This document shows positions 43,286 to 57,609 of a stretch of DNA of 64,000 bases, piece after piece; within the stretch, counting starts at the first letter, position 1; every line of letters starts with the position of its first letter. The notes below the pieces were generated by a model, which searched no databases, was not told the origin of the DNA, and saw nothing but the letters and a program-made list of their open reading frames with translations. This DNA is from Parcubacteria group bacterium. GTDB lineage: Bacteria; Patescibacteriota; Minisyncoccia; Moranbacterales; UBA2206. The position numbers were made by a program, and so were the translations under genes. Where the stretch lies: contig JBAZYF010000003.1 in the NCBI GenBank assembly GCA_041659505.1, positions 150,026 to 214,025 of the forward strand, read 5' to 3'.

Positions 43286-45226
43286 TCAAATTTCAATACT
43301 TTTCGCACTGTCGATCCACAGTTTTCCTGTGGCATCGGATGGTGCGCGCCAGTCACCGCGAGGAGAAACAGAGACAGAACCGATCTTGGTCCCATCCGGC
43401 ACTGCGTTGCGCTTGAACTGGGCCGCGAACATCCGCTGGTAGAATTTCACCAACTGATCTTTGATATACTCCACGTCATAGACCCCGGCAAATGCCTGAC
43501 GAGCCAGAAAATTGATTTTTTCCGGTTCGAAGCCGTTACGCAATGAGTGAAACATGAAGAAATCATTCAGATCATATTCCCCGATCAATGCTTCGGTCTG
43601 CTGTCCCGGCAATAATTCCGGTGAAATTGGTGTCGCACAGATATCCTTGATAATCTTGGACGCAATATCGCTGAACATTTCCAGCTTGACGACTTGCTCA
43701 ACCACGAATTTCACCAAAGTCTTGGGAACACCGCAGTTCGGATTATACATCGACATATGGTCGCCGTTATAGGTGCACCAGCCGAGAACTAACTCGGACA
43801 AATCCCCTGTCCCGATCACGAAACCAAGAGACATCAGGATCAATGTACGGATCCTTGCCTGAGAATTCTCACAAGTGAGACAGTTCATACAAGGTTCGTG
43901 TTCAATATCACGGAGCAATTGTAAGGTCAGTTTTTTGATCGGAATTTTCTTGAGCGTGACACCGAACTCCTTGCAAAGCTTGATAGCGTTATTCAGTGTA
44001 CGCTTGCTCGTCCCAAAACCCGGCATCGTCACTGCGATGATGCCGCTACGCGGCCAGCCAATCATATCGAACGCCCTAACTGTGGCAATGAGCGCAAGAG
44101 TCGAATCGAGGCCACCGGAAATTCCGATGACAACCTGGCGATTCAGGACTGACTCCAACGAAGAAAATCTTTTCACCAGACTGGCGATTTGGAGCTGCAA
44201 AATATTCTTGCAACGTTCATCCAACGTCGCCGGATCTTTCGGCACAAACGGATTCGCGTCAAAAACAAACATAGCACTGAGCTTATTCAGATCGAGCGGA
44301 GCAATTTCAGCCCTCACCTGCCGATAAGTCTTGCCATAGACGCTTGTTTCATTGGCAATGGCCTGAGAAAAACTCCCGGACACGCGCCGCTCCCGATTGA
44401 GTCTTTGCACATCAATATCATAGGCAAGCAAGCGCTCATTAAAGAACAGCTCTTGTTTTTCTGCAACGATCGAACCATTGTCAGCGATCAACATATGACC
44501 GCTCCAAACGACATCCGACGTCGATTCTCCTGCGCCACACGACACATAGACATAGGCACACAAACAACGCCCGGATTGATTCTTGACCAGTTCTCGGCGA
44601 TAATCGGACTTGCCAATCAATTCGTTAGACGCAGAGAGATTAAGGATTACCGTCGCCCCCTGGGCTGCCAGATGGGAACTCGGCGGGATCGGCATCCACA
44701 AGTCTTCGCAGATCTCGACACCAAAAGAGAAATCCGGAATAGTTGTCAGAACGACAATATCTGTTCCGATGCTGACTTTCTGCAGACAAAATTCAATCTC
44801 TTTTATGGGAAGCCGGTCGGCCGGAGAAAAATGCCGCAGTTCATAGAATTCCTTGTAATTGGGAATATACGATTTGGGAATGATCGCCAGCACTTTTCCC
44901 GACTGACAGACGACAGCCACATTGAACAGTTGGCCGCCAACCTTGAGCGGTATGCCGAACACGGAAATAAGATCATACTTCTCCGTCGCTTGGACATACC
45001 GCATCGCTTCTACTTCAGCTTCATTCAGTAGTGTGTCCTGCAAAAAAAGATCGCCACAGCTATAGCCTGTCATTCCCAACTCTGGGAAGACAAGCAGCTG
45101 CACATTTCTGCTTATTGCCTGACCTGCCAACCTGATCATATTTTGCACGTTCTTTTTCGGATCAGCAATCTCCACGAGCGGCTTGGCTGCCGCCACGCGG
45201 ACATAACCATAATCATTTTTTTTCAT
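43286..45226 (-). CDS. nadE: Glutamine-dependent NAD+ synthetase (CN-hydrolase domain plus NAD synthetase domain)
   Basis: N-terminal nitrilase-like domain and a C-terminal PP-loop domain with GISGGLDSTLAL; 646 aa. Confidence 0.9.
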   Translation of the reverse strand: MKKNDYGYVRVAAAKPLVEIADPKKNVQNMIRLAGQAISRNVQLLVFPELGMTGYSCGDLFLQDTLLNEAEVEAMRYVQATEKYDLISVFGIPLKVGGQLFNVAVVCQSGKVLAIIPKSYIPNYKEFYELRHFSPADRLPIKEIEFCLQKVSIGTDIVVLTTIPDFSFGVEICEDLWMPIPPSSHLAAQGATVILNLSASNELIGKSDYRRELVKNQSGRCLCAYVYVSCGAGESTSDVVWSGHMLIADNGSIVAEKQELFFNERLLAYDIDVQRLNRERRVSGSFSQAIANETSVYGKTYRQVRAEIAPLDLNKLSAMFVFDANPFVPKDPATLDERCKNILQLQIASLVKRFSSLESVLNRQVVIGISGGLDSTLALIATVRAFDMIGWPRSGIIAVTMPGFGTSKRTLNNAIKLCKEFGVTLKKIPIKKLTLQLLRDIEHEPCMNCLTCENSQARIRTLILMSLGFVIGTGDLSELVLGWCTYNGDHMSMYNPNCGVPKTLVKFVVEQVVKLEMFSDIASKIIKDICATPISPELLPGQQTEALIGEYDLNDFFMFHSLRNGFEPEKINFLARQAFAGVYDVEYIKDQLVKFYQRMFAAQFKRNAVPDGTKIGSVSVSPRGDWRAPSDATGKLWIDSAKSIEI

Positions 45227-45252
45227 TGGTTACTACCTCCTTCATGAGATAT

Positions 45253-46155
45253 TTACAGTAATTTCGCAATGAGCGGTGAAAGCGATAAAACTTCAAAATA
45301 CGGCTCTGATTCAACTTTCGCCACCGTATCAGGACAAGAATCGGTCAACCAAACAAAATCAAACAAATCGGGCGTAAACTTTTTCCATGAATCGTGAACA
45401 AACACGCCATGCGTCGCATATGCACTGATCTTGTAGGCACCTGCCAGCATTAGGACTTTCTGGCATTCGATCAGTGTACCACCAGAAAGGATAAGATCAT
45501 CGACCATGATGATATATTTGCCTCGCGGATCACCTTCTTTGATAGTCACAACTTTTGTTCCGTCCGGCATTTTCACCTTATTACAAACAATCTTAGGATA
45601 TTCAGGAAACATCGCACCGAATCTCTTATGCGCTCCATCATCAGGAAACGCGATTGCCACATTCGGGATATATTTGATGCGCCCTTTGAGCAACGGAATT
45701 GCACTGACCAACTCAGGCAATACTCGCGTGTCATCAAAATAAAACTGGGTCTGCAGGGCATGGATATCGAAAATTGTGATGATCGGCGACCTTGGTATGG
45801 TGGATAACATCCGTGCCAAAGTTTTTGCCGTCGCAATTTCCCCATACTCTGTCACTCGTTCCATCGTGCCGACAGGATAGAAAGGCACGATGACTCTAAA
45901 CGAATGCACCAGATGCATCGGCATCGCATAGAGAATCGCGAATTGCTCGAACAACGATTCGGGCTTTTCAAAGTTTGCAAAGAAAATAACGTCTTGGTTT
46001 CTCACCTGATCCGCATCCTCGATGAATATTTTCGGCCAACCATCGCCAAAACTCTGCCAAGATATCCCACCTATTGCTACACCAACCATCTCAGCAACTT
46101 TCTCCGCCATTTCCGTAATCGTATGATGGGCAAAAATAATTTTTCTAGTCGCCAT
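45253..46155 (-). CDS. prs: Ribose-phosphate pyrophosphokinase (PRPP synthetase)-family protein
   Basis: FDIHALQTQFYFD (cf. Prs DLHAxQIQGFFD) and the PRPP-binding loop IIMVDDLILSGGT. Confidence 0.75.
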   Translation of the reverse strand: MATRKIIFAHHTITEMAEKVAEMVGVAIGGISWQSFGDGWPKIFIEDADQVRNQDVIFFANFEKPESLFEQFAILYAMPMHLVHSFRVIVPFYPVGTMERVTEYGEIATAKTLARMLSTIPRSPIITIFDIHALQTQFYFDDTRVLPELVSAIPLLKGRIKYIPNVAIAFPDDGAHKRFGAMFPEYPKIVCNKVKMPDGTKVVTIKEGDPRGKYIIMVDDLILSGGTLIECQKVLMLAGAYKISAYATHGVFVHDSWKKFTPDLFDFVWLTDSCPDTVAKVESEPYFEVLSLSPLIAKLL

Positions 46156-46172
46156 ATTTCTTCCTCCTTAAT

Positions 46173-46997
46173 TCAGCGCGAAAGACCTTTCTTGGTCTGC
46201 AAGGCTCGATAAAATTCATTACTATCAGTGACTGCGAAAAGCAGCCGGGTTTCATGCTGTTTGACGATGATTTTTTCTCCCACTGTCATATTGCCGATAA
46301 TCTTTCCATCAGCGACTAAGTTGACCACGCCAGAAGGCTTGGTACCGACCAATTCCATCGTGATGATAGAATCGGGCGTCATGACCAGCGGCTTGACATT
46401 GAACTGATCGGAATACATCGGTGTCGCAAAAAGACATTCGATGCCCGGCAAAGCGATAGTTCCACCAGCGCTTACATTATACCCGGTCGAACCGGTCGGC
46501 GCGGCAATAATGAAACCATCAGCCGTCATCGCCCGATAGACCACGTGTCGATTGACCGACAATTTCATGGTCGCCATTGATGCGGTATGTTTCAACACGA
46601 CATCGTTAGCAAACGGACCATATTTGGTGCCTTTATATTCCAGCTCCAATCCGATCCGCTTTTCCGCGATATACTTTCCCTTGATGATTTTTCCCAAAAT
46701 AGTATCCCAGTTTTTCATATTGCCAATGGTCACAAATCCGACACCGCCGTCAATATTGATCGGAATCGTAATGACTCCGTAGATCGAATATTCCGTCACG
46801 GTCCGAATGGCCGTCCCATCACCGCCAAGGGCGATGACATAACGAGCCAGCATCTTGAGCGGATCGCTTTCAGCAATCACGATTTGACCCTCGGCAAGCA
46901 GCCACTCGGTCATTTCTTCCTTCACTCGCATCGCCAGCGACTTTCCCTTGTTCGCGACAACCACAAAACCTTCTCTTTTTTGCGTCATAACAATCAC
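46173..46997 (-). CDS. nadK: NAD+ kinase
   Basis: GGDGT motif (ALGGDGTAIR) and NAD-kinase C-terminal beta-sandwich motifs (TGSTGYNVSAGG). Confidence 0.85.
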   Translation of the reverse strand: MIVMTQKREGFVVVANKGKSLAMRVKEEMTEWLLAEGQIVIAESDPLKMLARYVIALGGDGTAIRTVTEYSIYGVITIPINIDGGVGFVTIGNMKNWDTILGKIIKGKYIAEKRIGLELEYKGTKYGPFANDVVLKHTASMATMKLSVNRHVVYRAMTADGFIIAAPTGSTGYNVSAGGTIALPGIECLFATPMYSDQFNVKPLVMTPDSIITMELVGTKPSGVVNLVADGKIIGNMTVGEKIIVKQHETRLLFAVTDSNEFYRALQTKKGLSR

Positions 46998-47131
46998 CTC
47001 TCTTTCGCTAATTTATATATTCACTTTTTAAAGAAATGTTTCTACACTTTTGTCGAGCTTCCCAAAAAAATTTTGAGCTTCTCGATTAAAGTGTGATGGA
47101 AAAGAAATTGTTCTTCCTCTCCATCACGCGA

Positions 47132-48094
47132 TTACTGAATAATAAAATTCCTTTTGACATACGCCATTGCGTCATCAATAAATTTACGATGATGCTTAAG
47201 CCCCAATTCGAGCACGGGAATATCTCCATACGGAACTGCGATAACTTCCCTCGCATCATCCGATGCCTTGAATAATGCGGCTGCAGACACGGCATCCAAA
47301 TCGGAGTCAATATTGACAACGGTTGCATAGGCAAAGGTCCAATAGACCCGCTTAATCTGGAGTTTATTGCAGTTCGTTTCTGCGATCCGCTCCTTTTTTT
47401 CTGTGACATATATACCGAGATATTTGAGTGCGGCACTGACTTTCTTATTATCAATATCAACTGAGATAAGAAGGCCGTCAACATTGGGATCATCCAGGCT
47501 TCTGGATTGAGATACTCTTGCAGACATTCCTACAGAAATTTCTTCAGATCCCTCGCGCAGCGCACATCTGGCTCCAGTTTCGATGTCATAGACTCCGACA
47601 TTCAGGAATCCTCCCGGAGCGGCAATCGTGCCAACACCAGGTTCATTTTTCCGCCGGATCAGGATGAGAAAAACTTTGTCATTGCGATCCCGGACGAAAA
47701 GCACCAGATCGGAAGCCAGTCCCGGCTTGATATACGCGCGCCACATCATGGAATCCACGGTATAGATATAGCTATGCGAAACGGGCACACGATGCCGACT
47801 GATCTGGATCACATCGCCGAAACAGCCATAATCATCGCGCTGACAATAAAATTGCTGCGCAAGCTGTCTGACATTTTCCCGATCCCATTCGTCATCCATA
47901 TGCATCGTTGCCTGATATTCCGCCGCCTGGATTTCCCCCATATTCACCGGCACAAATTCAAAGATTGGTGTTGTGCTCTTGCCCTGACGACTTGCATCCA
48001 GCGGATTGTCATAGACACCAACAATCTCACCTTTCATTCCGACAACATAATATCGCTTGGTTTCAATAATGGACATATCTATTCCCTTTCTCAT
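47132..48094 (-). CDS. Nudix hydrolase-domain protein with N- and C-terminal extensions
   Basis: Central Nudix box-like segment (GGFLNVGVYDIETGARCALREGSEEISV); 320 aa. Confidence 0.55.
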   Translation of the reverse strand: MRKGIDMSIIETKRYYVVGMKGEIVGVYDNPLDASRQGKSTTPIFEFVPVNMGEIQAAEYQATMHMDDEWDRENVRQLAQQFYCQRDDYGCFGDVIQISRHRVPVSHSYIYTVDSMMWRAYIKPGLASDLVLFVRDRNDKVFLILIRRKNEPGVGTIAAPGGFLNVGVYDIETGARCALREGSEEISVGMSARVSQSRSLDDPNVDGLLISVDIDNKKVSAALKYLGIYVTEKKERIAETNCNKLQIKRVYWTFAYATVVNIDSDLDAVSAAALFKASDDAREVIAVPYGDIPVLELGLKHHRKFIDDAMAYVKRNFIIQ

Positions 48095-48244
48095 TAGAGT
48101 TTCGTATGGTTAAAGAACAACGCTCGGTTGAATCACGAATAATAGAAATTATTCGTGATTCAATTAAGCGCAGGAGGGAAGAAGTTTCTTCTTCGCCTCC
48201 TGCTTTTGGATTATTTCAATTCATCTTATCGTGCCAGGCGCTTT

Positions 48245-49432
48245 CTATGCCCGCTCATATGCGAGTTTAAGTTCATCGCCATTTCCATGTTTCCGACCAA
48301 CCTTCGTCCGATAGACCCATTCGCCATTTTCCTTCACATGGGAAATATCGGAAGTGAACATTGCAAAACGGATCCAGGATCCGGTTCCGATAAAATCCAT
48401 CGGGGCATTAACCTTTTTGAAGGCAGCAACTTTCTTTTTGTTGAAGCCGGAACTAACAACGATTTTCACATTGTTGGCACCGATGCTGTCAAGATAGTCC
48501 CTAATGACAAAAGTTGCTTCTGCCGTAACGCCGTTTCCGAAGAAATATTTTTCAGATGTACCGATTTCCATGCCGTACTTATTTTCAAAGACGCGCATGG
48601 TGCTATTCAGAATCAGCCCTGTTTTTTTCCGGAAATAGCTTTCCAGCATATGAAAATCAGTCGGATCATGCGTTCCCTGTAGCTGTCTTCCGCCGTGCGT
48701 GTCAAGGCGGACCGCAAACAGCTTGTCGCCGAAAACCTCAAACGCCTGTTTGGCCACATCAAGCTCGCGACCTTCGAAATCAACAAGCACCGTGATGGGT
48801 TTGTTCGGATATGTCTCATGAAACAGCATGGCTGCCGCTACACTGGGAAAGATGTTTTCTTCTTCGGCCATATGGGAAACGACTGCAGCCATAGCATGCG
48901 GAAGAGAAGCATAAAGTCTGAAGGCATCTCCCGGGTTATAGAATCTTTGCACGTAGTTGTATCCGGCCTGAGTCGATGTACCGGCTGCGCCGCCGAGATA
49001 AGCTGCCAGCGCCGCTTCCTCAATGATATTCCACGGAAAATGCCGTGCTGACATATCAACGACCGGAATGGCTCCGGCCACATCGACAATTTCTTTCATC
49101 GCCGTCGCCGCTCCGCTGTAACTGAGAAATCCCAGATAAGTGGTTTCCAGATTAACCAGCTCCATAAACAGACCCTCAATGATCAAAACGGGATCACCCG
49201 ATTTGAAAGCTTCACCATCTTTGAGCGCCATGATTCTCAGCGGCCCAAAAGTATTTTCGGAAATGAAAGCCACGGCCCGGTTACTGCCGGCAACAATGCC
49301 ATCTTCCCGTGCAAACACCTTGTAGCGGACCACTGTGGCAATCAAGTTGGGATTCCGAAGAACGATATCCCGGCAATTGTTGAAATACTGATCTGCGATT
49401 TTGACTGTTTCCATCGATTCTCTCCTTTGCAT
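48245..49432 (-). CDS. Nicotinate/nicotinamide phosphoribosyltransferase family protein
   Basis: Type II PRTase (NAPRTase) family by length (395 aa) and its context among NAD salvage genes. Whether the substrate is nicotinate or nicotinamide cannot be decided from sequence. Confidence 0.65.
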   Translation of the reverse strand: MQRRESMETVKIADQYFNNCRDIVLRNPNLIATVVRYKVFAREDGIVAGSNRAVAFISENTFGPLRIMALKDGEAFKSGDPVLIIEGLFMELVNLETTYLGFLSYSGAATAMKEIVDVAGAIPVVDMSARHFPWNIIEEAALAAYLGGAAGTSTQAGYNYVQRFYNPGDAFRLYASLPHAMAAVVSHMAEEENIFPSVAAAMLFHETYPNKPITVLVDFEGRELDVAKQAFEVFGDKLFAVRLDTHGGRQLQGTHDPTDFHMLESYFRKKTGLILNSTMRVFENKYGMEIGTSEKYFFGNGVTAEATFVIRDYLDSIGANNVKIVVSSGFNKKKVAAFKKVNAPMDFIGTGSWIRFAMFTSDISHVKENGEWVYRTKVGRKHGNGDELKLAYERA

Positions 49433-49697
49433 TTGGCTGAATGATATTTCAAAATAAATATTTGGCAGAATTTCTCTGCAAACACAAAAACTTCCACATT
49501 ATTGATTTCAACATCCGGCTGAAAAATATTTTTCGACAATCTCCTTTCGTTCGATTGATGAATTGAGTTTTAAGGTACTCTTCCGCCTCAACCGAAGTTG
49601 AAGCGAGAAAACTGGAACCAAATATCTTTCGTTACAATTTTCTGGGCGGGGAGAAAACGAAATTGCTTTCTCCCCGCACTGTTCTTGTTTGAAAAAA

Positions 49698-50768
49698 TCA
49701 GAGACAATACCCCGCCTTCTGAACCATTGCCAATTGTTGGAAAGCTAAACCCTTTTCCTTCACAAAACTTTCGGTGTATAGCCAGACTTCGGTCAAAGCT
49801 TTGGAAGACAGCAACCAAGCCGACAATACTTGCGGTGGCATTGAAAACTCAAGCAGGAATGGCTGACAGGAGCCACCTTTTTTGTGACCCTTTTTGGGAT
49901 CCTTGGGCGAAAAAACTCCGAGGGATTTCATCTGGGTCAGCACACCATTCACGCGGACTGGTGTCGGTTCAAGATATCTTTCCAAGAGTTCAATCGTGAG
50001 GCCAGTTTTCAATTTCGCTTGCCGAACCGCGGCACTTTCCGGATTTTCATACATCCGAATGGCACCACCAGGCACTGCCAATGCTCCGGGAAAGTCAGGT
50101 TTTTTTCGGCTGCGATAACCGCAGATGATTGAATTTTTTCCTTCATAGCGATTGACGATGATAGCATCGACTGCTTGGCGTCCTTCCACGAACTGATTCA
50201 CGTCATGCTCGAGCGCCTGGCAGATTCCTTCAAATCCATTGACTGCGCCCATAAGTTGAAGTGTTCCCGGTGCCGCCACTTTCCTGAAACCTTCCCAATC
50301 GCCTCTCTCAATCATTTCCCGCATATCGGTGGAATGGAAAGGAAATTGATATTGTCTCGGCAATTCCATTTCAGGATTGAAAATTCTTTCGAAAGGAATC
50401 GGTAGTTTGCGTGCATAGATCTGGTCAGTGATCATCGCGGTATTGCCAGTCACGAGCCACTTGGCATTGTAGCGTTTTTGCAATTTCAGGATATGCCCAT
50501 ACCATTTCTCAAAATCATGGAAATCGGGCAGATGGATGACCGGCACGCGATCGATATTAATGCCCCGAGCAACAAGACTGGCCAGATACATCTTTTCCCG
50601 ATAGACAGCCGAAAGGGGGTGTTTCTTCATTCCCTGACAATAAACACTGCCCATGACGATCAGAACTCGGTCAAATTCCTCCTCTTTCAAAAGATATTCA
50701 ACATTGATGATATGCCCCCAATGAGGCGGGTCAAGTTTGCCGATAAACATGGCTGTTCTTTGCGACAT
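49698..50768 (-). CDS. nadM: Bifunctional NMN adenylyltransferase (archaeal NadM-type) / Nudix ADP-ribose pyrophosphatase
   Basis: N-terminal (H/T)xGH nucleotidyltransferase motif (GKLDPPHWGHI) and a C-terminal Nudix segment (PGGAIRMYENPESAAVRQAKLKTGL). Confidence 0.75.
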   Translation of the reverse strand: MSQRTAMFIGKLDPPHWGHIINVEYLLKEEEFDRVLIVMGSVYCQGMKKHPLSAVYREKMYLASLVARGINIDRVPVIHLPDFHDFEKWYGHILKLQKRYNAKWLVTGNTAMITDQIYARKLPIPFERIFNPEMELPRQYQFPFHSTDMREMIERGDWEGFRKVAAPGTLQLMGAVNGFEGICQALEHDVNQFVEGRQAVDAIIVNRYEGKNSIICGYRSRKKPDFPGALAVPGGAIRMYENPESAAVRQAKLKTGLTIELLERYLEPTPVRVNGVLTQMKSLGVFSPKDPKKGHKKGGSCQPFLLEFSMPPQVLSAWLLSSKALTEVWLYTESFVKEKGLAFQQLAMVQKAGYCL

Positions 50769-50892
50769 CCGGAACTCCTTTCCGCAAAATTGCGCTTGGA
50801 TTTTTCTCTGATCAATTCTTTAAGGTTAAAGTACTGATTTGAAAAAAATACTTTCAAAAATTCTGGCTATTCTATTGTTAAGTGGTTGAAAA

Positions 50893-50936
50893 AATTGGAT
50901 CCGGAGCCGAGCAAGATTTTTCTCGCTCGACTCCGA
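50893..50936 (-). terminator. Rho-independent terminator after the vWA gene
   Basis: Two-segment stem CGGAG/CTCCG plus CGAGC/GCTCG, followed by a T-run on the minus strand. Confidence 0.5.
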
Positions 50937-50959
50937 ATGTTGATGTTCGTTGAAAGGTA

Positions 50960-51790
50960 CTATGACTGGTCCCAGAAGCCGCCCGTGGTCGGAGTTCCGA
51001 CAGTCTTCAGGCTTCCGCTGATAACCTGACTGGAAAGAGTGCCGATCATGTGTCGGAAACGTCTCTGAATATCTTCCGTGGTTTCACCGGCGACCTTCTT
51101 GAATTCGAAGACATCAAACCCCGTGTCCTTAGCAATTTTTCTGCCATCGACCTTTTCCCAGGTTTCAAAAACGGCAAATGGGAATTGAAAGAGCTCACGG
51201 CTGAGGCCATCGACGAGTGTCTTAACGGAACTGGCCTTGGCCCGTCCCACATTGTCAGCCCCATCACCCAGACCGACGATAATGACTTTGGGTGGCGTAC
51301 CCGTCTGTGAAAAAACATCGGTGGCTTGAGCGCAGGCTGCCGTAATGGCATAGACCTGGGCCTGATACTGATTCGTTGCTGAGCCGGCTTCGGGATCATA
51401 ATCTGCATGAGTCAGATACGGCAGATCTTCAAGTCTTTTGAACCCACCGCCCCAAAGCGGAGTGATGTCAGAGCTGAATGATAGACCACCGATAATGATC
51501 GTTTTGGTCGTCTTTTTGGACGCTCCACGTAATCCATCAATCATAACTTCATTGAACGTCTCAATCAGAACATCCCGGACGTCTTTCATGGACGGTGATC
51601 GGTCGATACAAAAAAACATGATGATCACGTCCTCGGTCTCAATCGTCTGAATGGGCACACCCACGCACATCGGCAGGGTCGTCGCATTCAGATTGGCAAT
51701 CATAATTTTCGAAGTATCGTCTTTGATCCCCAGGTCTGCTGCATCGTCTGTGTTAAACAGATCTGTTACGGACTGAACTGTTGTTGTCAT
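50960..51790 (-). CDS. von Willebrand factor A (vWA) domain protein, TerY-like
   Basis: MIDAS motif DRSPSM (DxSxS); 276 aa. Confidence 0.7.
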   Translation of the reverse strand: MTTTVQSVTDLFNTDDAADLGIKDDTSKIMIANLNATTLPMCVGVPIQTIETEDVIIMFFCIDRSPSMKDVRDVLIETFNEVMIDGLRGASKKTTKTIIIGGLSFSSDITPLWGGGFKRLEDLPYLTHADYDPEAGSATNQYQAQVYAITAACAQATDVFSQTGTPPKVIIVGLGDGADNVGRAKASSVKTLVDGLSRELFQFPFAVFETWEKVDGRKIAKDTGFDVFEFKKVAGETTEDIQRRFRHMIGTLSSQVISGSLKTVGTPTTGGFWDQS

Positions 51791-51892
51791 CTTGTGTTCT
51801 CCTTCTCATTTTCAGAATTTCAGAATAATGTTGGGACGGCGGAAGCGGTTGCTCCCGCCATCGATTCGTTAACGTTTTTCCTGATGCAATAA

Positions 51893-53584
51893 TCAGGCGA
51901 ACAGCTTGGTGCTGGTAGTCACCTGGATGCCCTGGCTGGCCATCCGTCTCAGGAACTCATCAGCGATCCTCCGGTTGTTCGGAAAAACCATACTCGTGCA
52001 GTCCGTCAGGAATTTCACCTTCTGGAGCGCCTGGGGATGTTTTCTCGCGAAGTAGGAAAGAAGCTGGACCATACTGTCATGGACGCAGAAATCCTCGGCC
52101 TCGCCGGCAACACCGACCACATCATAGCGAGCAATCGCATCCAGCATGGCAGTGTTCAACCCGCCATTGGGATGATTGGGACGCTCGATACAGGGGCAGA
52201 AAATTCCATAGTGTTCGGTCGTTGGGACCGAACCCTTGAACAGGAACATCGGTTGTTCCTTCCGAACAATGCTCCACCAATAGATCGCTTCTACCAGCGC
52301 CGGCATCAGCGATCCGCCTTGAGTGCCGACACCGCAATGGTCCGGCCAAATCATGAGCGGGGTCTGATTGTTTTTCTCGAGATCGCCCGGATAGGACTCG
52401 GCTTCTTTGGTAGGCTCGATTCTTGCCCGCATTTCTCCACTGGCAACCATCGAGGCCAAAATCTGCGTGAACACCATTGGATTCTGGTTGGCCTTGTCCT
52501 TCCAATAACGGGAGAAAAAGATTTGCCAGACCAAATGCATGTCCATCGAAAGCAGAAGCGCCGAGATTTTTTCCGGGTATAGATAGATCAGTTCGATGAA
52601 ACGACGCAAATCGTCCACCGCACCGGATACCATCAGCGATCCCGCGGGCTGAAGAATTCTTCCCATGAGGTCCTTAATTTCCTGAAGAATGAAGTCGGTC
52701 TGCATATCAATTCCGACCAGCAGAGTCTTCACCCTATCACTTGATGCGGGTGGAAGATTCATGCGCTTGGCTTCGTCCTCAACCCAGTCGAGCCTTGGCA
52801 AATAGAATCTGCCTGCATCAGCTGGATCATAATATGCCGGCATCTGACGCCCGCGTAATGTTATCCCGGATTTTCTGGGACGAACGGCGGCCGGCAATTC
52901 AGCCTGGAAGTTGATGACTTCACAGTCATACAATTCCGTCAGCTTGCAGTTGGGGGCGATATATTCTTTCATGCCCCGAACACCCTTGTCGTCATAAGTA
53001 TACCCATCGCCCTTGTACTGCTCGCGCAGATGGACGACGAAATACAGGAATGCCCGGGCGTTTGTTGCTGTGTCCGCTGCTTTCTCATAACGCTCATAAG
53101 TCATGAACGCCGGATTTGCTTTTCCTTCGTGATCGACCACGGACATATCACAGCCATAATCATTTTCGAATTCATCAAATGAGGTGTTCTTGAGGACATC
53201 GGCGTGACGGCGCAGGCGATCGGCAATATCCGGATACGCTCTCGAAGTCACTTCGATCATCCCGTCCCAGGTCGCGAGCTGTGCCGGTCCGCCTTCGCGG
53301 AACACGACCAGTTTGACTTCATATCCATCCTGAATTTTCTGGATCGCATAGCCGGGTTCCCACCCGATTTTGATGAGAATCAAAAATCCGGGGGTGCCGA
53401 CCAATGATGCCAGGCCTTCGGGATCTGTCAGCAAAATTAACTTTCTGTCGGGATCTTCGCTCAGGGTTTCAAAATCCTTGGCGCTTCTCCCACGGATCAC
53501 GCGGCCCAAAAGGCCCTGCGTGGTCACTTCTCCAAGGAAGCCTCTTCTGAATGCATTTGCGTACTGATGAACTTGTGTCGTCAT
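51893..53584 (-). CDS. Fusion protein: unknown N-terminal 290-aa domain plus C-terminal nicotinamidase/isochorismatase-family (PncA-like) cysteine hydrolase
   Basis: The C-terminal half has LLVGIDMQTDF, MIWPDHCGVGTQGG and VVGVAGEAEDFCVHDS, which align with E. coli PncA LLVDLQNDF, WPDHCVQNSEG and IVMGLATDYCVKFT. The N-terminal half is unrecognised. Confidence 0.7.
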   Translation of the reverse strand: MTTQVHQYANAFRRGFLGEVTTQGLLGRVIRGRSAKDFETLSEDPDRKLILLTDPEGLASLVGTPGFLILIKIGWEPGYAIQKIQDGYEVKLVVFREGGPAQLATWDGMIEVTSRAYPDIADRLRRHADVLKNTSFDEFENDYGCDMSVVDHEGKANPAFMTYERYEKAADTATNARAFLYFVVHLREQYKGDGYTYDDKGVRGMKEYIAPNCKLTELYDCEVINFQAELPAAVRPRKSGITLRGRQMPAYYDPADAGRFYLPRLDWVEDEAKRMNLPPASSDRVKTLLVGIDMQTDFILQEIKDLMGRILQPAGSLMVSGAVDDLRRFIELIYLYPEKISALLLSMDMHLVWQIFFSRYWKDKANQNPMVFTQILASMVASGEMRARIEPTKEAESYPGDLEKNNQTPLMIWPDHCGVGTQGGSLMPALVEAIYWWSIVRKEQPMFLFKGSVPTTEHYGIFCPCIERPNHPNGGLNTAMLDAIARYDVVGVAGEAEDFCVHDSMVQLLSYFARKHPQALQKVKFLTDCTSMVFPNNRRIADEFLRRMASQGIQVTTSTKLFA

Positions 53585-53680
53585 TGTTCGTTACTCCTTT
53601 TCTTGAGTTGGGATTTTACTGCGATTATTTTTCATTATATACAGATTTACCAAAAAAACTTTCACCACCGACATCCCAAA

Positions 53681-55648
53681 CTATTTGGAATCCGGCGTCA
53701 GATAGAGAATCCGATCACGACTGATTACCAGGACCCCATTTTGATAGCGGAGCAACTGGGAAACGCCGGTGACATAATTCTCTGTTCCGGGAAGGTTTGA
53801 CGTGCTTTGGTCAGCCACTATTTCCATCACGATTCCGTCATCGGTTGCGTGAAGGACAGAGTGACCAAGATAGCCCTTGCCATGGATTGAACTGTACAGC
53901 TTGGCATCAGACACTTTCTGGCGATATGAGCTGAGCACCTTTCCACTCTTCGCTTCAAGTTGCTCGACCCGTACATATTTCGTACCGGAAAGTTTCGTTT
54001 GCCGCATCACAAGCACCGTGTCATTACTGAACCGGACTGAAGTGTCGATGAGTGATTCGGCTTTCAATAGTGCCGAAAGCTCGACATTATGGCGGTCGTA
54101 GGTTCGTCCATCAGGAGCGCCCTCGACCAGGAACCATTTCAACTCATCAAACATCCGATAACACCCGAACAGCAGTTCCTTTTTCAGTTCCGGATTGGAA
54201 CCGACAACGAACCAGGTCTGATTGGGCATCGCCTCAATCACTTCACGTTCCGCCAAGTGATCTCCGAAAAGATCGCCTGACATGATTTTATTGCTCACGA
54301 TGCGATACAATCTGCGACTGGAACAGCCGAAGACCGCACTACTGCCACCGAACTTGGAAGTGGTGGATTTCGTGATCGGCTTGATTTTGGCACCGCTGAC
54401 ATCCAGCAGAAAAAGTTTTGGTTCTTCTTCGGATGGCTTCGGGCAAACAACCAGGGTCTCTTCGAAAAATTCATAGCGCGCTCCGACAGTTGTGGCAAAT
54501 AATTCCTTTCGCTCAATCACTCCCCTAGGTGGTTGGATATACAACACCGTCGTACCGGCTTCATCAGCCAGACAATAGATACTGTCACCGACCAGCTGGA
54601 AATGCAGGATTGCTCCCGGAGTTTCCAGAATGATCCGACTGACACAACCAGCCACTTTCGCGGCCATTTGAGCGGCCATGATTGTTTTAGTTGCGCAACC
54701 AGGACAGTTGCTCCGAGTCGCCGGATACCAGATGTGACAATTGCTGCATTCCACCAGCAGCTCGCTGTATTCGCGCAAAGCATCGATCGGAAATGAATCC
54801 GTGCGTTGCCGCTTGAGATACGCGAGGAGCAGATTGATCAGATCATCAGTCATAATTTCCGGCGGGTTTGCCATTTTGGGAAACCGCACATCCTTGTCGA
54901 GAATGGTCAGGCCATGCTTGGCTCTTTCGAACAGGGAAACGTGCGAACGATGGAAACCACTCCCGAAGGGGTGCGCCATCATGATCGCCCGGAACAAGAG
55001 TACCGCAAAAGAGTAGTAATCATGTTCGGGCTTGAACATCGCTTGCTTCGCCAGATCGATCCCATACAGCTCCGGCGTCAGATAATCATCCGAACCGACA
55101 CTGCAAGGAAAGTTGTTGCCAATCTGCCAGCTATCCGCATCAATCCAATAAATCAGTAATTTATGCAGATCAAAATGCTGGTTCTGATCATTGAGATCAC
55201 CCACTGTCGTATTACCAGCCTTATGAATGCCATCAAGACCCATAAGCATATTGCAAAAGATCTTGGCTTTCATCTGGTTGGTGACGCGATACTGAGTGCA
55301 GAAATCCTGCCGCATCAGCATCGCCAATGGTTCGGCACCGGTTGGCATCAAACTCATCTGGAAACCAATAATCCCCTTGTCAGTTTTATTCCGATAAACC
55401 GGAGCTTCCGGCCCGAAGACTGTTTCAGGGAATTTCAATCCCTTCTGAAAAATGTAGCCTAGCTTTTCTGATCTTGCCGCTGTCGGTTGGTGATACAGCT
55501 TCAGAGCCTTATTGCCACCAACGCCGATGATAACCGCTTCGCCACCTGAACCGATGACTTGCGACTGATCAATATCGACACGCTGGCGATCCTGTCCTTG
55601 ACCGACATAGCAATCTCTATTCTTAACCGTACTTTTAGCTACTGCCAT
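53681..55648 (-). CDS. Ser/Thr protein kinase-like domain, zinc ribbon, and a C-terminal beta-rich domain
   Basis: Gly-rich loop VIGSGGEAVII, catalytic-loop-like VGDLNDQN, DADS (DFG-like), YLTPELY (APE-like), ribbon CSNCH...CPGC. The start at 55648 has a perfect AAGGAGG Shine-Dalgarno and overlaps the PP2C stop by 14 nt. The track ORF extends to 55759. Confidence 0.65.
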   Translation of the reverse strand: MAVAKSTVKNRDCYVGQGQDRQRVDIDQSQVIGSGGEAVIIGVGGNKALKLYHQPTAARSEKLGYIFQKGLKFPETVFGPEAPVYRNKTDKGIIGFQMSLMPTGAEPLAMLMRQDFCTQYRVTNQMKAKIFCNMLMGLDGIHKAGNTTVGDLNDQNQHFDLHKLLIYWIDADSWQIGNNFPCSVGSDDYLTPELYGIDLAKQAMFKPEHDYYSFAVLLFRAIMMAHPFGSGFHRSHVSLFERAKHGLTILDKDVRFPKMANPPEIMTDDLINLLLAYLKRQRTDSFPIDALREYSELLVECSNCHIWYPATRSNCPGCATKTIMAAQMAAKVAGCVSRIILETPGAILHFQLVGDSIYCLADEAGTTVLYIQPPRGVIERKELFATTVGARYEFFEETLVVCPKPSEEEPKLFLLDVSGAKIKPITKSTTSKFGGSSAVFGCSSRRLYRIVSNKIMSGDLFGDHLAEREVIEAMPNQTWFVVGSNPELKKELLFGCYRMFDELKWFLVEGAPDGRTYDRHNVELSALLKAESLIDTSVRFSNDTVLVMRQTKLSGTKYVRVEQLEAKSGKVLSSYRQKVSDAKLYSSIHGKGYLGHSVLHATDDGIVMEIVADQSTSNLPGTENYVTGVSQLLRYQNGVLVISRDRILYLTPDSK

Positions 55649-56456
55649 GGTCGCCTCCTTTGGGCTCTGTCGATAATCCGACTCCGTCACCGGAATTGAG
55701 ACTGCCGACCAGCTCACCGCTTGCCGAAATTTTTTCCACGATGATTGCACTGCAATCATCTTTGAAAATAAGCTTACGAAGCGAGAGGACTTTCAACGCC
55801 CGCTGCACTCCCAGTTTATCTTCCGTGTGACCCCAAAGGGCGCCCGCTGCTTCCGGCAACATGCCGTCAGAGCAAACTGCGAAACGATTGATAAAACTCA
55901 TCTGATAAGTCTGCACCATGAAGGCATCCGGCACGATTCCGTCTTTGGCTGTCAGATATTTGCGGTCAACTAAATGGTACCCCAAATATCTCGGCTTGTT
56001 GTCTTGATCAATCTGTATGAATTGATCATTAATGACAAGCACCCCATCCCCGGCTGAGAAGAATATGACTCTCTCGTTGTCCGTAATAAATCCGATGATG
56101 GTACAGAGTAGATGGTTGATGATAAAGTTAATCCTTTTGATCGGATCACCTATACTGGTCATCGACGCTATCGCCGAAAGATATCCGATGCAACGCGAGA
56201 ACAGTGCTCCAGGAATTTCTTCCATCGGTACGCCGACCTGCAACATCATTGGAATCTCACTGGCAATATAGCTGACCATGAGATGTGCTCCCGTTTCATT
56301 ACGCGCACCGGCCGAGCAACCATCACAGACTACCCCAAAGGTGTAATTCGTCTTTTCGACGGTTACACGATCGAAATAAAGACTGTCCTGGTTGTTTTTT
56401 CCGACGCGCTTATGATCGTTTCCCGGGAACGACGCGATTCTGAACCGATAATCCAT
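55635..56456 (-). CDS. PP2C-family Ser/Thr protein phosphatase
   Basis: Metal-binding motifs VCDGCSAG, FSAGDGVL and VCSDGM; 273 aa. Confidence 0.7.
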   Translation of the reverse strand: MDYRFRIASFPGNDHKRVGKNNQDSLYFDRVTVEKTNYTFGVVCDGCSAGARNETGAHLMVSYIASEIPMMLQVGVPMEEIPGALFSRCIGYLSAIASMTSIGDPIKRINFIINHLLCTIIGFITDNERVIFFSAGDGVLVINDQFIQIDQDNKPRYLGYHLVDRKYLTAKDGIVPDAFMVQTYQMSFINRFAVCSDGMLPEAAGALWGHTEDKLGVQRALKVLSLRKLIFKDDCSAIIVEKISASGELVGSLNSGDGVGLSTEPKGGDHGSS

Positions 56457-56940
56457 TCCTTTTCTTCCTCCCTATATAAGTGATTTTTCTTCGTAAAATC
56501 TGTTTTTCCAATTCTTCAATTTGTCAATGATCTTTCAGCCAAATAATCGCCTCACAGAAGTGCAAACCGCATTTTTAACTGAACTCCGAAAGATACATCA
56601 TACTTCTAGATTTGTCAATACCCCTTACACTCAAAACCTCCCATTCCCAAATCATATTAATCACCCGATTTCGACTCAGTGATAATTCGTATCCTACCCA
56701 GACCAAGATAATAGATACGTTTTTAAAGAACTGCATTGGCCTGATAGCACGCTTCTATTGATTAAAAGCGCCCTATCAAGTCAAGATTTCTTATATTTCT
56801 TTTTTGAATCTGGGAAAAGTGCCACTTAATAGAAACTACAATATCAACGAGTCTTTCCAGCTATGTTCACGTATTTTTTACACTTACTATTATGAAAATA
56901 AAAACAGGAGAAACTGACTGCAAAAAACCTCCGAAACGGA

Positions 56941-57609
56941 TCATAAGATCTGGATCATACTTGCCTTCTTTTGGGTAAAGGTATATAAATCAGCCGGTCT
57001 GCTCGGAAGACCCTTTCTTTGTTTTCCGCTCTTTTTTACTATTCCCAACGAGAGAATCCTTTTTCTAAAATTTCGTTTGTCCAGTTTCTTTTGCAAAATG
57101 ATCTGATAAATGTTTTGTAATTCGCTCAGCGCGAAAGTTTCAGATAGTAGACCATAGGCGATGTTTGTGTATTCTAATTTGGCTTTTAGACGGCCGATTG
57201 CCGTTGCGATTATCTCCGCATGATCATACGCCAGCGCCGGAAATTTACTTATCGGAAACCACTGAACTCCAGCATATTCTTCCGTAGTTTTCAGATCAAG
57301 ATTGCCCCAGGGAATTAGGGCAAAATAGGCGACGGAAACCACCCTCCCAAACGGATCGCGATCTACTTCGCCAAAAGTATAGAGCTGCTCCAGATAAACA
57401 TCACCTAAGCCCGTTTTTTCCAACAGAATCCTCTTGGCTGCGTCATTAGTCGATTCTTCAGGACCAACTAGTCCGCCAGGCGCCGCCCAATATTTTTCAA
57501 ACGGCTTTTTTTTCATCTTAATCAGCAACACCTGAAGCTCATTATCAATGATAGTGAAAATTACCACATCAACCGCTATAACCGCAAATTTGTATTTTTT
57601 TGTAATCAT
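56941..57609 (-). CDS. nrtR: NrtR-like regulator (Nudix-like ADP-ribose-binding domain plus C-terminal winged helix)
   Basis: 222 aa with an N-terminal Nudix fold (AAPGGLVGPEES) and a C-terminal wHTH-like region. NrtR-family proteins regulate NAD salvage genes. Confidence 0.55.
   Translation of the reverse strand: MITKKYKFAVIAVDVVIFTIIDNELQVLLIKMKKKPFEKYWAAPGGLVGPEESTNDAAKRILLEKTGLGDVYLEQLYTFGEVDRDPFGRVVSVAYFALIPWGNLDLKTTEEYAGVQWFPISKFPALAYDHAEIIATAIGRLKAKLEYTNIAYGLLSETFALSELQNIYQIILQKKLDKRNFRKRILSLGIVKKSGKQRKGLPSRPADLYTFTQKKASMIQIL

Follow-up and report, generated by a model that had tools for sequence, protein, structure and literature searches.

On the reverse strand of the window (the whole 64-kb stretch of DNA analyzed), an ORF at positions 51893-53584 runs from an ATG to a stop codon without interruption, with a Shine-Dalgarno sequence, AAGGAG, located 8 nt 5′ of the ATG. 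Its 563-aa product comprises an N-terminal domain (hereafter N-domain), a variable linker and a nicotinamidase domain. The neighboring genes on the same strand encode a PP2C phosphatase (55635-56456) and a Ser/Thr-kinase-like protein (53681-55759) on the upstream side, and a TerY-like vWA protein (50960-51790) on the downstream side, so that the kinase/phosphatase operon context given in the original prediction was correct. The NAD regulator NrtR (56941-57609) and the rest of an NAD cluster (43286-50768) flank this group.

Homologs of the full ORF (n = 29) were mostly full-length, 508-610 aa. The AlphaFold2 model of the full-length 563-aa protein had a mean pLDDT of 92.3 and a pTM of 0.62, a value too low for confidence in how the two domains are oriented to each other. 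The lowest pLDDT block (61-82) fell in the linker, residues 233-285 (52730-52888), which is missing from many homologs and corresponds to the indel-rich columns ~265-340 of the 29-homolog alignment (A1). It had been considered that two neighboring genes might have been merged in the window by a frameshift or an assembly error. The two halves are indeed overlapping ORFs in one related MAG (L026), and they are separate genes in three loci (L027/L034, L029 and L035). However, the N-domain is joined to the amidase in most lineages, the single-ORF form was found in 19 complete loci, independent of each other, as well as in ~50 protein clusters drawn from a range of phyla and samples, and the linker keeps the reading frame and is in part structured. 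Since the fusion is kept across several phyla, it is not a frameshift artefact; this explanation is already refuted by the conservation of the fusion, and we give it practically no weight.

Residues 286-563 (51896-52729) were assigned to a Pnc1-type nicotinamidase domain on the basis of Foldseek and of a profile search of PDB sequences. The C-terminal half had been described as PncA-like, and the motifs cited for it were present when checked codon by codon: D293-M-Q295-T-D297-F298, W413-P-D-H416-C417, K450-G451 and A496...C500-V. The Asp-Lys-Cys triad is intact and invariant in the 29 homologs, with the catalytic D293 (52706-52708) aligned to VDMQNDF of Pnc1p, the catalytic K450 (52235-52237), in an invariant K-G, aligned to KG of Pnc1p and of A. 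baumannii PncA, and the nucleophilic C500 (52085-52087) aligned to A..YCV / A.DHCV of Pnc1p and Mtb PncA. The putative metal site spans positions 52337-52543 and consists of D348 and H350 (52535-52543) and H416 (52337-52339), aligned to D-W-H and WP.HC of solved nicotinamidases, with a ~60-aa insert between the D348/H350 and H416 motifs. In the 29-homolog alignment the invariant positions are D293, Q295, F298, D348, H350, H416, K450, G451, G494, A496 and C500. An Asp/His/His metal site (D-x-H ... WPxHC) sets nicotinamidases apart from other isochorismatase-family amidases.

The structural searches pointed in the same direction. With the amidase domain as query, Foldseek returned 82 PDB matches at E≤1e-3, of which the top 11 were all nicotinamidases/pyrazinamidases; the best was 3v8e (5.5e-11, TM 0.77), and the target-normalised TM of these 11 was mostly 0.70-0.80, with 0.50 for the longer 9u8m chain. 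When the amidase profile was compared with PDB sequences, the ten best matches were again all nicotinamidases (2h0r, 1.6e-12), and nicotinamidases scored from 1e-12 to 1e-3, whereas other isochorismatase-family enzymes appeared at E>0.07. The Pfam Isochorismatase model (PF00857) did not match the window protein even at E≤10, and a precomputed match to this model was found in two homologs only, marked as faint for P0024. Its fold, metal site and Asp-Lys-Cys triad all being those of Pnc1/PncA enzymes, the C-terminal domain most likely converts nicotinamide to nicotinate and ammonia, as judged from sequence and model. The ORF is the sole nicotinamidase-like gene in the window. In five homologous loci a separate canonical isochorismatase/PncA is also present, so that it may be too simple to call the fused amidase "the" PncA of those loci.

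The N-terminal ~290 aa had been reported as unplaceable, and both sequence-family and Foldseek searches upheld this. The extent of the region was partly revised: it is unrecognised along its length, but the folded part covers residues 1-232 (52889-53584), and residues 233-285 belong to the linker. It is predicted to fold as an alpha/beta core with a seven-helix insert, and the domain-only model had a pLDDT of 95.3 and a pTM of 0.86, which argues against the suspicion that the region might be disordered. Pfam, scanned at E≤10 with the two protein halves separately, left the N-terminal half unmatched, and NCBIfam, PHROGs and PADLOC at E≤0.01 left the N-terminal region unmatched as well; these four collections likewise had no match for the C-terminal half or for the undivided protein. 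The N-terminal region hence matches no common housekeeping domain in these collections. No meaningful match was obtained with PDB sequences using a single sequence or a profile (the single-sequence search gave only noise), with Foldseek against PDB (best E 1.5) or against the BFVD viral models (best E 0.5), or with tblastn against INPHARED cultured phages and PLSDB plasmids. The ART, RES, macro, Tpt1 and 2H-phosphoesterase folds are well represented in the PDB; they were considered and rejected, being absent from the Foldseek output and with their Pfam models unmatched. The NIR/DUF4062 Pfam family was never matched, and the RyR-domain glycosidase is an unrelated system.

In the 29-homolog alignment the N-domain is better conserved than the amidase. 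Over 209 aligned N-domains, four codon-verified residues stood out: R28 (53501-53503), in the GR.IRG strand, is 99% conserved, and W106 (53267-53269), R177 (53054-53056; R.FLY helix) and E207 (52964-52966; EY..PN) are 100% conserved. As modeled, the N-domain folds on its own, and it belongs to a large family that lacks annotation and has an invariant Arg-Trp-Arg-Glu constellation. To judge from the sequences, an absolutely conserved Glu next to two Arg and a Trp could equally well make up a catalytic site (e.g., that of an N-glycosidase) or a binding pocket.

A profile search of cluster representatives placed at least 790 clusters in the N-domain family, which occurs in CPR bacteria, Asgard archaea, predatory bacteria, metagenomic jumbo phages and Acanthamoeba. 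About two-thirds of the instances (141/208) are standalone. A standalone N-domain adjoins NadE and NMNAT in one locus (L032) and NrtR in another (L033), and it lies directly downstream of SIR2 in two related Asgard contigs (L031 and L018). In L035 the N-domain is fused to the vWA protein that accompanies it (hhalign probability 99.5%, E 4.5e-23), and the amidase is a separate upstream gene; pairwise BLAST of P0036 against the window vWA protein was uninformative, the assignment was decided by profile comparison, and this fusion was found in one contig only. Other fusion partners are the unrelated catalytic domains IMPase, a PPP-like metallophosphatase and, as a weak match, HD, and tandem copies of the N-domain occur. 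Fusion to unrelated catalytic domains and tandem duplication are typical of sensor domains. Two further partner assignments were discarded: CinA/PncC for the C-terminal part of fusion P0078 (Pfam E 0.017) was unsupported by the PDB sequence search, and SLOG/LOG-like regions in P0134, P0055 and L035:1512-2279 were unconfirmed by Pfam.

The genes that accompany the fusion form a constant set. Among the loci that carry the N-domain together with this amidase type, counted with fixed domain profiles (N-domain, C-domain and vWA), one PP2C and one kinase were found in 25/25, and a vWA protein in all 23 module loci in which the sequence extends far enough, whereas PP2C, kinase and vWA were found in 0/9 loci with a lone N-domain. 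Since two-thirds of the family are standalone, without kinase, phosphatase or vWA, the domain has a function of its own for which the switch is not required. The PP2C of the window matched Pfam PP2C_2 with 33.4 bits against a 24-bit cutoff. The Pfam Pkinase match of the kinase is weak and sub-threshold (21.9 bits), and residues G70/G72, K87, H179, D188, N190 and D207 are conserved; the protein also carries a zinc ribbon (C338/C341/C352/C355), present in 13/14 sequences, and a conserved C-terminal region of ~330 aa. The ATG at 55648 is probably where its translation really begins. In the vWA protein, family alignment A6, which shows DxSGS...GGTPLYDA...ITDGxDN, locates the MIDAS residues at D63-R-S-P-S67, T139 and D176, followed by a Ser-rich C-terminal tail; the best PDB profile match was weak (the ITIH4 vWA domain, E 0.05). 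With catalytic residues and zinc ribbon intact in the kinase and the MIDAS motif present in the vWA protein, both look functional, and the combination of PP2C, zinc-ribbon kinase and MIDAS vWA corresponds at the level of predicted domains to the TerY-P-triad architecture. PADLOC at E≤0.01 left the vWA, the PP2C, the kinase and the amidase fusion all unmatched. The G+C content of the module region is 0.46-0.51, and that of the flanks about 0.32-0.42.

A terminator-like hairpin with an 18-bp stem followed by a T run, detected by consensus scan only, lies just past the vWA gene (50899-50938) and would close a PP2C-kinase-target-vWA transcription unit. A promoter-like site, TTGACA-17-TATCTT, was detected by the same kind of scan upstream of the PP2C gene (56590-56618); chance alone would give as many sites of this type in the region, and the call is accordingly weak. 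NrtR, a Nudix plus winged-helix, ADP-ribose-responsive repressor of NAD genes, was identified by Pfam (NrtR_WHD, 8e-21; NUDIX, 1.6e-16) and NCBIfam (NF050029, 5e-50), and it adjoins the module in the window and in 15/25 loci; the sequence upstream of the module (56457-56940) yielded no palindromic operator of the NrtR type. Downstream, Pfam and NCBIfam matches identified NMNAT-Nudix (49698-50768), NAPRT-like (48245-49432), Nudix (47132-48094), NAD kinase (46173-46997), Prs-like (45253-46155) and glutamine-dependent NadE (43286-45226) proteins; NAPRT, NMNAT-Nudix, NADK, Prs, NadE and NrtR are all encoded on the same strand. Judged by annotated domains, the Preiss-Handler pathway is complete in the cluster of the window. 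The neighbors of the homologs are likewise enriched for NAPRTase (8), NMNAT-type (7), Nudix, NadE, PnuC and NADK, and two large phage contigs carry the module together with NAPRT and NadE. Given a Preiss-Handler cluster beside NrtR and the NAPRT/NadE company in phages, the context argues for salvage rather than degradation. The proposal that the fusion is a two-step NAD-degrading enzyme is thus unsupported as stated, the protein being the only nicotinamidase within a complete NAD-building cluster, and we favor it less than the salvage reading.

With moderate confidence, we propose that the ORF encodes a phospho-regulated nicotinamidase that gates NAD salvage, with the N-domain as a ligand-binding or docking hub. 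The amidase domain would supply nicotinate to the NAPRT, NMNAT and NadE encoded downstream. The N-domain, as the hub of the module, may bind an NAD-derived or pyridine ligand in its Arg/Trp/Glu pocket and may dock the vWA/kinase/PP2C switch. Reversible phosphorylation would then toggle the nicotinamidase, and hence the flux of nicotinamide into NAD resynthesis, following the NAD status or an attack on the NAD pool, and NrtR would add a transcriptional layer above the phospho-switch. In jumbo phages, the cassette together with NAPRT and NadE could rebuild NAD from nicotinamide via the deamidated route. The regulatory role of the hub is inferred from gene arrangements: N-domain-amidase fusions, separate genes, the vWA fusion, the other fusions and the tandem copies are all consistent with it. 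Weighing against the proposal are the many standalone family members that lack kinase, phosphatase and vWA, the equally good fit of the conserved Glu to a catalytic site, the vWA fusion being confined to one contig, the separate PncA of five loci, the Pfam and PADLOC models that miss the module proteins, and the NrtR operator that was sought and not found. A more specific version, to which we subscribe only tentatively, is that the N-domain has a new fold and serves to sense or convert a metabolite derived from NAD, and that with the nicotinamidase and the vWA/kinase/PP2C switch it forms an undescribed signal-gated NAD-salvage device by which ultra-small symbionts, predators and jumbo phages restore an attacked or limiting NAD pool.

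Other readings of the N-domain place the chemistry in the domain itself. It could be an N-glycosidase or NADase of new fold that frees nicotinamide from NAD(P), NMN or nicotinamide riboside, so that the amidase would pass nicotinate on to the Preiss-Handler pathway. CD38, TIR and ART enzymes are the reference for the make-up of NAD-glycohydrolase active sites, and the invariant Glu207 and Trp106 with two or three Arg resemble such sites; the domain is more conserved than the amidase and mostly standalone, as an enzyme would be, its phosphoesterase fusions (IMPase and metallophosphatase) would suit a stepwise breakdown of phosphorylated pyridine nucleotides, and its hosts (CPR, predatory bacteria and phages) are scavengers. 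However, no known NADase or glycosidase fold resembles it in the Foldseek search of PDB, a glycosidase would not usually be fused to a vWA adaptor or duplicated in tandem, and a NADase would be odd inside an NAD-building cassette of a phage. Furthermore, the NMNAT already present in the clusters could take NMN directly, so that cutting NMN or NAD to the base would be wasteful, and we consider this reading unlikely. Still less probable in our estimation is that the N-domain acts on ADP-ribose, O-acetyl-ADP-ribose or a phosphorylated ADPR, by binding or by hydrolysis, the fusion then clearing both products of a sirtuin or NADase, nicotinamide and ADPR. The position of SIR2 directly upstream of a standalone N-domain suggests such a link, but it was seen in two related archaeal contigs only; several invariant Arg could hold a pyrophosphate, phosphoesterases are among the fusion partners, and the association of the N-domain with the ADPR-sensing regulator NrtR is constant, but the window cluster already has two Nudix domains of the ADPR-pyrophosphatase type, and the N-domain is unlike the macro, ARH, NADAR and Nudix folds by Pfam and by Foldseek against PDB.

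The four genes could also be a TerY-P-type anti-phage or conflict system, in which a kinase-activated N-domain-amidase would remove nicotinamide, and perhaps NAD, and so keep an invader from rebuilding NAD by nicotinamide-dependent pathways such as NARP1 or NARP2. The architecture equals that of the TerY-P triad, TerY-P-like stand-alone anti-phage modules have been reported (PMC11090510), the G+C of the module region is higher than that of its flanks, and phage NARP1 and NARP2 are reported to require nicotinamide. Against this, the PADLOC models match none of the module proteins, the module sits in NrtR-associated NAD-synthesis operons and not in defence islands, the two large phage contigs themselves carry it with NAPRT and NadE, and nicotinate would remain a usable NAD precursor for the cell. 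We regard a role in defence as very improbable.

NAD depletion and rebuilding are a recognised central battleground between phages and bacteria, and CPR symbionts are known to depend on their NAD supply. A phospho-regulated nicotinamidase would wire the first step of deamidated salvage to a phosphorylation switch, a mode of control that would be undescribed for bacterial NAD salvage, and the locus suggests that entry into NAD salvage can be switched in tiny symbiotic bacteria and giant phages. The N-domain family, with at least 790 clusters in the three domains of life and in phages, is without annotation or structural relative, and it is tractable for enzymology or ligand screening thanks to an invariant Arg/Trp/Arg/Glu site and a strict NAD context. 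In addition, the TerY-P-type triad, mechanistically obscure so far, gains a concrete candidate client protein. If the signal-gated device is true, the phage NARP pathways would have in it a regulated counterpart based on the Preiss-Handler route; if the N-domain is no more than a structural appendage, what is left is a divergent PncA whose operon is unusual.

Compared with Pnc1p and PncA (isochorismatase-like cysteine hydrolases; 2h0r/3v8e, 2wt9/2wta, 3pl1 and 1ilw), residues 286-563 have the same predicted fold (TM about 0.77) and share DxQxDF, D-x-H, WPxHC, KG and A..xCV, the triad and the Asp/His/His metal site. Yeast Pnc1p likewise has an insert between the two metal motifs, but that of the window protein is longer, about 60 aa. 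Sequence identity to these enzymes is only 14-19%, and PF00857 misses the window protein, which also differs from them by the addition of a 232-aa N-terminal domain and a linker and by the obligatory linkage of its gene to kinase, PP2C and vWA genes. To our knowledge, no characterised nicotinamidase has such an N-terminal domain and linker. As in NrtR-controlled NAD salvage operons, NrtR is encoded immediately beside the module (in the window as well as in 15/25 loci), but the operator was not found upstream of the window module. We know of no described NrtR regulon that includes kinase/PP2C/vWA genes or the N-domain, and none containing them was found in our literature search.

Phage NAD+ reconstitution comprises NARP1 (Adps and Namat), NARP2 (Nampt and Nmnat) and NARP3 (PnuC and NadR); the last is an unrelated system. 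The presence of the module in large phage contigs with NAPRT and NadE is likewise consistent with NAD rebuilding from nicotinamide. It differs from NARP1-3 in that it would follow the deamidated Preiss-Handler route via a nicotinamidase and includes a signaling triad and an unannotated domain, features that are no part of NARP1-3. The TerY-P triad consists of a TerY-like vWA, a PP2C and a Ser/Thr kinase with a C-terminal zinc ribbon (Anantharaman et al. 2012, as summarised in PMC11090510), and the summary also lists TerY-P-like modules that act as stand-alone anti-phage systems (Gao et al. 2020; PMC11090510). The module shares with it the MIDAS vWA, the PP2C and a kinase followed by a CxxC...CxxC ribbon, in tightly linked and co-oriented genes, but it is missed by the PADLOC models and its kinase bears the extra conserved C-terminal region of ~330 aa. 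Furthermore, whereas TerY-P is found with tellurite-resistance, restriction or CoCoNuT genes, the triad of the module is tied to the N-domain-nicotinamidase in NAD-salvage operons.

The open reading frame at 51893-53584 (minus strand) was confirmed as predicted, and it starts with ATG, carries an AAGGAG Shine-Dalgarno sequence 8 nt 5′ of this codon, and encodes a protein of 563 aa. The PncA motifs originally predicted in it, i.e., D293-M-Q-T-D-F298, W413-P-D-H416-C, K450-G and C500, were all present when checked codon by codon. Its N-terminal part proved to be as unplaceable as claimed: the protein had no match in Pfam (halves scanned separately, E<=10), NCBIfam, PHROGs or PADLOC, and the single sequence retrieved only noise from the PDB sequences, which so far left the resemblance to PncA at the level of motifs. 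A search of 5.8 billion proteins yielded 29 relatives, nearly all full length (508-610 aa) and most of them from Patescibacteria/CPR metagenome bins. When these were aligned, conservation was higher over the first ~230 residues (N-domain) than over the C-terminal half, and residues 233-285 formed a linker rich in indels. Scanning of genome collections revealed a locus 92% identical to that of the window in a Candidatus Moraniibacteriota MAG, which tells from what kind of organism the window derives, and fused homologs in other CPR phyla, in Bdellovibrionota, in Micavibrio and in MAGs labelled Gammaproteobacteria. Since the fusion recurs among the relatives and is conserved in several phyla, two genes joined by a frameshift, the artefact against which the prediction had been set, could be excluded. 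In a Falkowbacteria MAG (L026, 7998-9553) the homolog is divided at the domain boundary into two overlapping ORFs, for which a frameshift of the assembly is the probable cause.

The C-terminal half of this protein (the target) is a nicotinamidase domain, and its predicted catalytic machinery is intact. The AlphaFold2 model of the full-length protein (mean pLDDT 92.3) was compared with the PDB using Foldseek, and all top ranks were nicotinamidases or pyrazinamidases, with yeast Pnc1p (3v8e; E 5.5e-11, TM 0.77) followed by the A. baumannii, Leishmania, Pyrococcus, Drosophila and M. tuberculosis enzymes. A profile of the amidase domain detected nicotinamidases among PDB sequences at 1.6e-12 to 7e-3, and other isochorismatase-family enzymes only at E>0.07. 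In the profile alignments D293, D348/H350, H416, K450 and C500 coincided with the catalytic and metal residues of solved nicotinamidases, and they were invariant throughout the family. Fold, triad and metal site are thus those of a nicotinamidase, as had been claimed for this PncA-like half, and the protein is too distant from the Pfam model to be recognized by it; its chemistry is ordinary and its sequence divergent. No second nicotinamidase-like gene was found in the window.

Loci were compared with profiles of two kinds, fixed domain profiles (N-domain, amidase and a vWA protein) and iterated ones (PP2C, kinase and NrtR). N-domain and target-type amidase occurred together in 25 non-redundant loci (window included), being fused in 19, cut by the contig end in 2, split by a frameshift in 1 and separate genes in 3. 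The predicted kinase/phosphatase operon was borne out, with exactly one PP2C and one kinase in 25/25 loci; the vWA protein was present in 23/23 loci whose sequence extends far enough, and NrtR was adjacent in 15/25. PP2C, kinase and vWA were absent from all nine lone-N-domain loci. This conserved five-component module has two gene orders, (NrtR)-PP2C-kinase-[N+C]-vWA, to which the window belongs, and (NrtR)-[N+C]-vWA-PP2C-kinase. At the window locus, a promoter-like site 5′ of PP2C and a strong terminator-like hairpin directly 3′ of the vWA gene (50938-50899, minus strand; 18-bp stem containing 9 G-C pairs, followed by a run of T), which separates this unit from the NMNAT gene, are compatible, as consensus matches, with a four-gene transcription unit PP2C-kinase-target-vWA. 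The listed kinase ORF overlaps PP2C by 125 nt (55635-55759), but its first 37 residues lack conservation among homologs, and translation therefore probably starts at an internal ATG, at 55648 (MAVAKST...), which reduces the overlap to 14 nt. The kinase retains its catalytic residues and, in 13/14 sequences, a CxxC...CPxC ribbon, beyond which ~330 conserved residues form a region of no recognised nature. The MIDAS signature of the vWA family is complete, and its tail is rich in Ser; in the tail motif FVSQSxxSxSQ (residues ~250-262 of the window protein) S253 and S260 are nearly invariant and are candidate phospho-acceptor sites for the kinase.

The window genes run on the minus strand from NrtR (57609-56941) through PP2C, kinase, target, vWA, NMNAT-Nudix, NAPRT-like, Nudix, NAD kinase and Prs-like to glutamine-dependent NadE (45226-43286). 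Once the target is counted as the nicotinamidase, the set covers the whole Preiss-Handler pathway along with PRPP supply and NADP formation. The Prs-like (45253-46155) and NAPRT-like (48245-49432) proteins are divergent, the latter falling far under the NCBIfam equivalog cutoffs with only a QRPTase_N domain detected by Pfam; they might be an ordinary Prs and an ordinary NAPRT, or else act on ADPR as analogues of Adps and Namat, the phage pair. A 320-aa protein (47132-48094, minus strand), in which an unrecognised ~120-aa N-terminal region precedes a Nudix domain, has conserved counterparts next to the module in L015 and L026 (E about 1e-23). The G+C content of the cluster (44000-56000) is 0.46-0.51, versus about 0.32-0.42 in much of the flanks, and may mark a horizontally acquired island, in line with the patchy spread of the module over phyla and phages. 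Among 126 neighbours at 22 other loci, once module genes were removed, NAPRTase (8) headed the Pfam families, ahead of NMNAT-type cytidylyltransferase and further kinases (7 each), canonical isochorismatase (5), PP2C (4), Nudix (3), and NadE, PnuC, NadR-type AAA_28 and NAD kinase (2 each). Several module loci (L004, 15964-16572; L033, 12198-12884; five loci of the neighbour scan) encode, in addition, a canonical isochorismatase/PncA of ~200 aa as a separate protein, and it may be asked whether the fused amidase differs there in substrate or regulation.

Standalone N-domain genes adjoin NadE and NMNAT in L032, and NrtR in L033, with an isochorismatase nearby. In two Asgard (Loki/Promethearchaeota) contigs (L031, 5343-7681; L018, 3-1909) such a gene directly follows a SIR2 gene, a pairing which hints that the N-domain acts on a sirtuin substrate or product; three further contexts were uninformative. 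In L027/L034 (a 253-kb viral contig) and L029, N-domain and amidase are separate genes of one kinase/PP2C cluster, beside NadE and NAPRT. In L035 a standalone target-type amidase (E 8e-73) lies 10 bp upstream of an N-domain fused to the vWA of the module itself (hhalign probability 99.5%, E 4.5e-23), and PP2C, NAPRT and kinase come next; because this architecture was seen only once, it is suggestive rather than strong Rosetta-stone evidence. The N-domain was also seen joined to an inositol-monophosphatase-family domain and to PPP-like metallophosphatases, of which one has a signal peptide; its further partners were a weak HD match and a second N-domain in tandem. Eukaryote-like members are P0080, P0161, P0165 and P0209 (Acanthamoeba castellanii ACA1_086530); the gene model of the last contains an exact internal duplication, apparently an artefact of assembly or annotation.

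The N-domain is a new, independently folding family tied to NAD genes, and its pair with the amidase is obligatorily linked to a TerY-P-like kinase/phosphatase/vWA set in NAD-salvage clusters, including those of two large phage-like contigs in which NAPRT and NadE accompany the module (L003, Ga0613824_000007, 158 kb; L034, IMGVR_UViG_3300033143_006101, 253 kb). We give about an even chance to a reading in which nicotinamide would enter Preiss-Handler salvage at the target under regulation, the N-domain serving the phospho-switch as a ligand-binding or docking hub. The main rival refines the original prediction of a two-step NAD-degrading enzyme: the N-domain would be a new-fold N-glycosidase that frees nicotinamide for the fused amidase. 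An invariant Glu/Trp/Arg site and the standalone state of most family members speak for it, but the NAD-building context and the N-domain-vWA fusion make it unlikely. The enzyme half of the prediction stands, and its degradative part is less favoured. Processing of ADPR or O-acetyl-ADPR by the N-domain, to which the SIR2 and NrtR links point, seems to us less probable still. Less credible again is a defence system with the target as effector, an idea suggested by the TerY-P analogy and contradicted both by the salvage context and by carriage of the module on phages. For the favoured reading, regulated entry into salvage, the biochemical role of the N-domain is the weakest point, and both this domain and its wiring to the phospho-triad are open to experiment.

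The searchable literature yielded no earlier account of the fusion, the N-domain or the module. Both the domain and its connection to a phospho-signalling triad, as seen in the NAD-salvage operons of jumbo phages and CPR bacteria, appear to be undescribed. In the literature (PMC11090510) the TerY-P triad is defined by three components, a TerY-like vWA, a PP2C and a kinase that bears a zinc ribbon at its C-terminus. The vWA, PP2C and zinc-ribbon kinase of the module have this same architecture, whereas the PADLOC defence models gave no match to the module proteins. The cassette of the two phage-like contigs, in contrast to NARP1-3, would be of the Preiss-Handler type, for NAD in jumbo phages.
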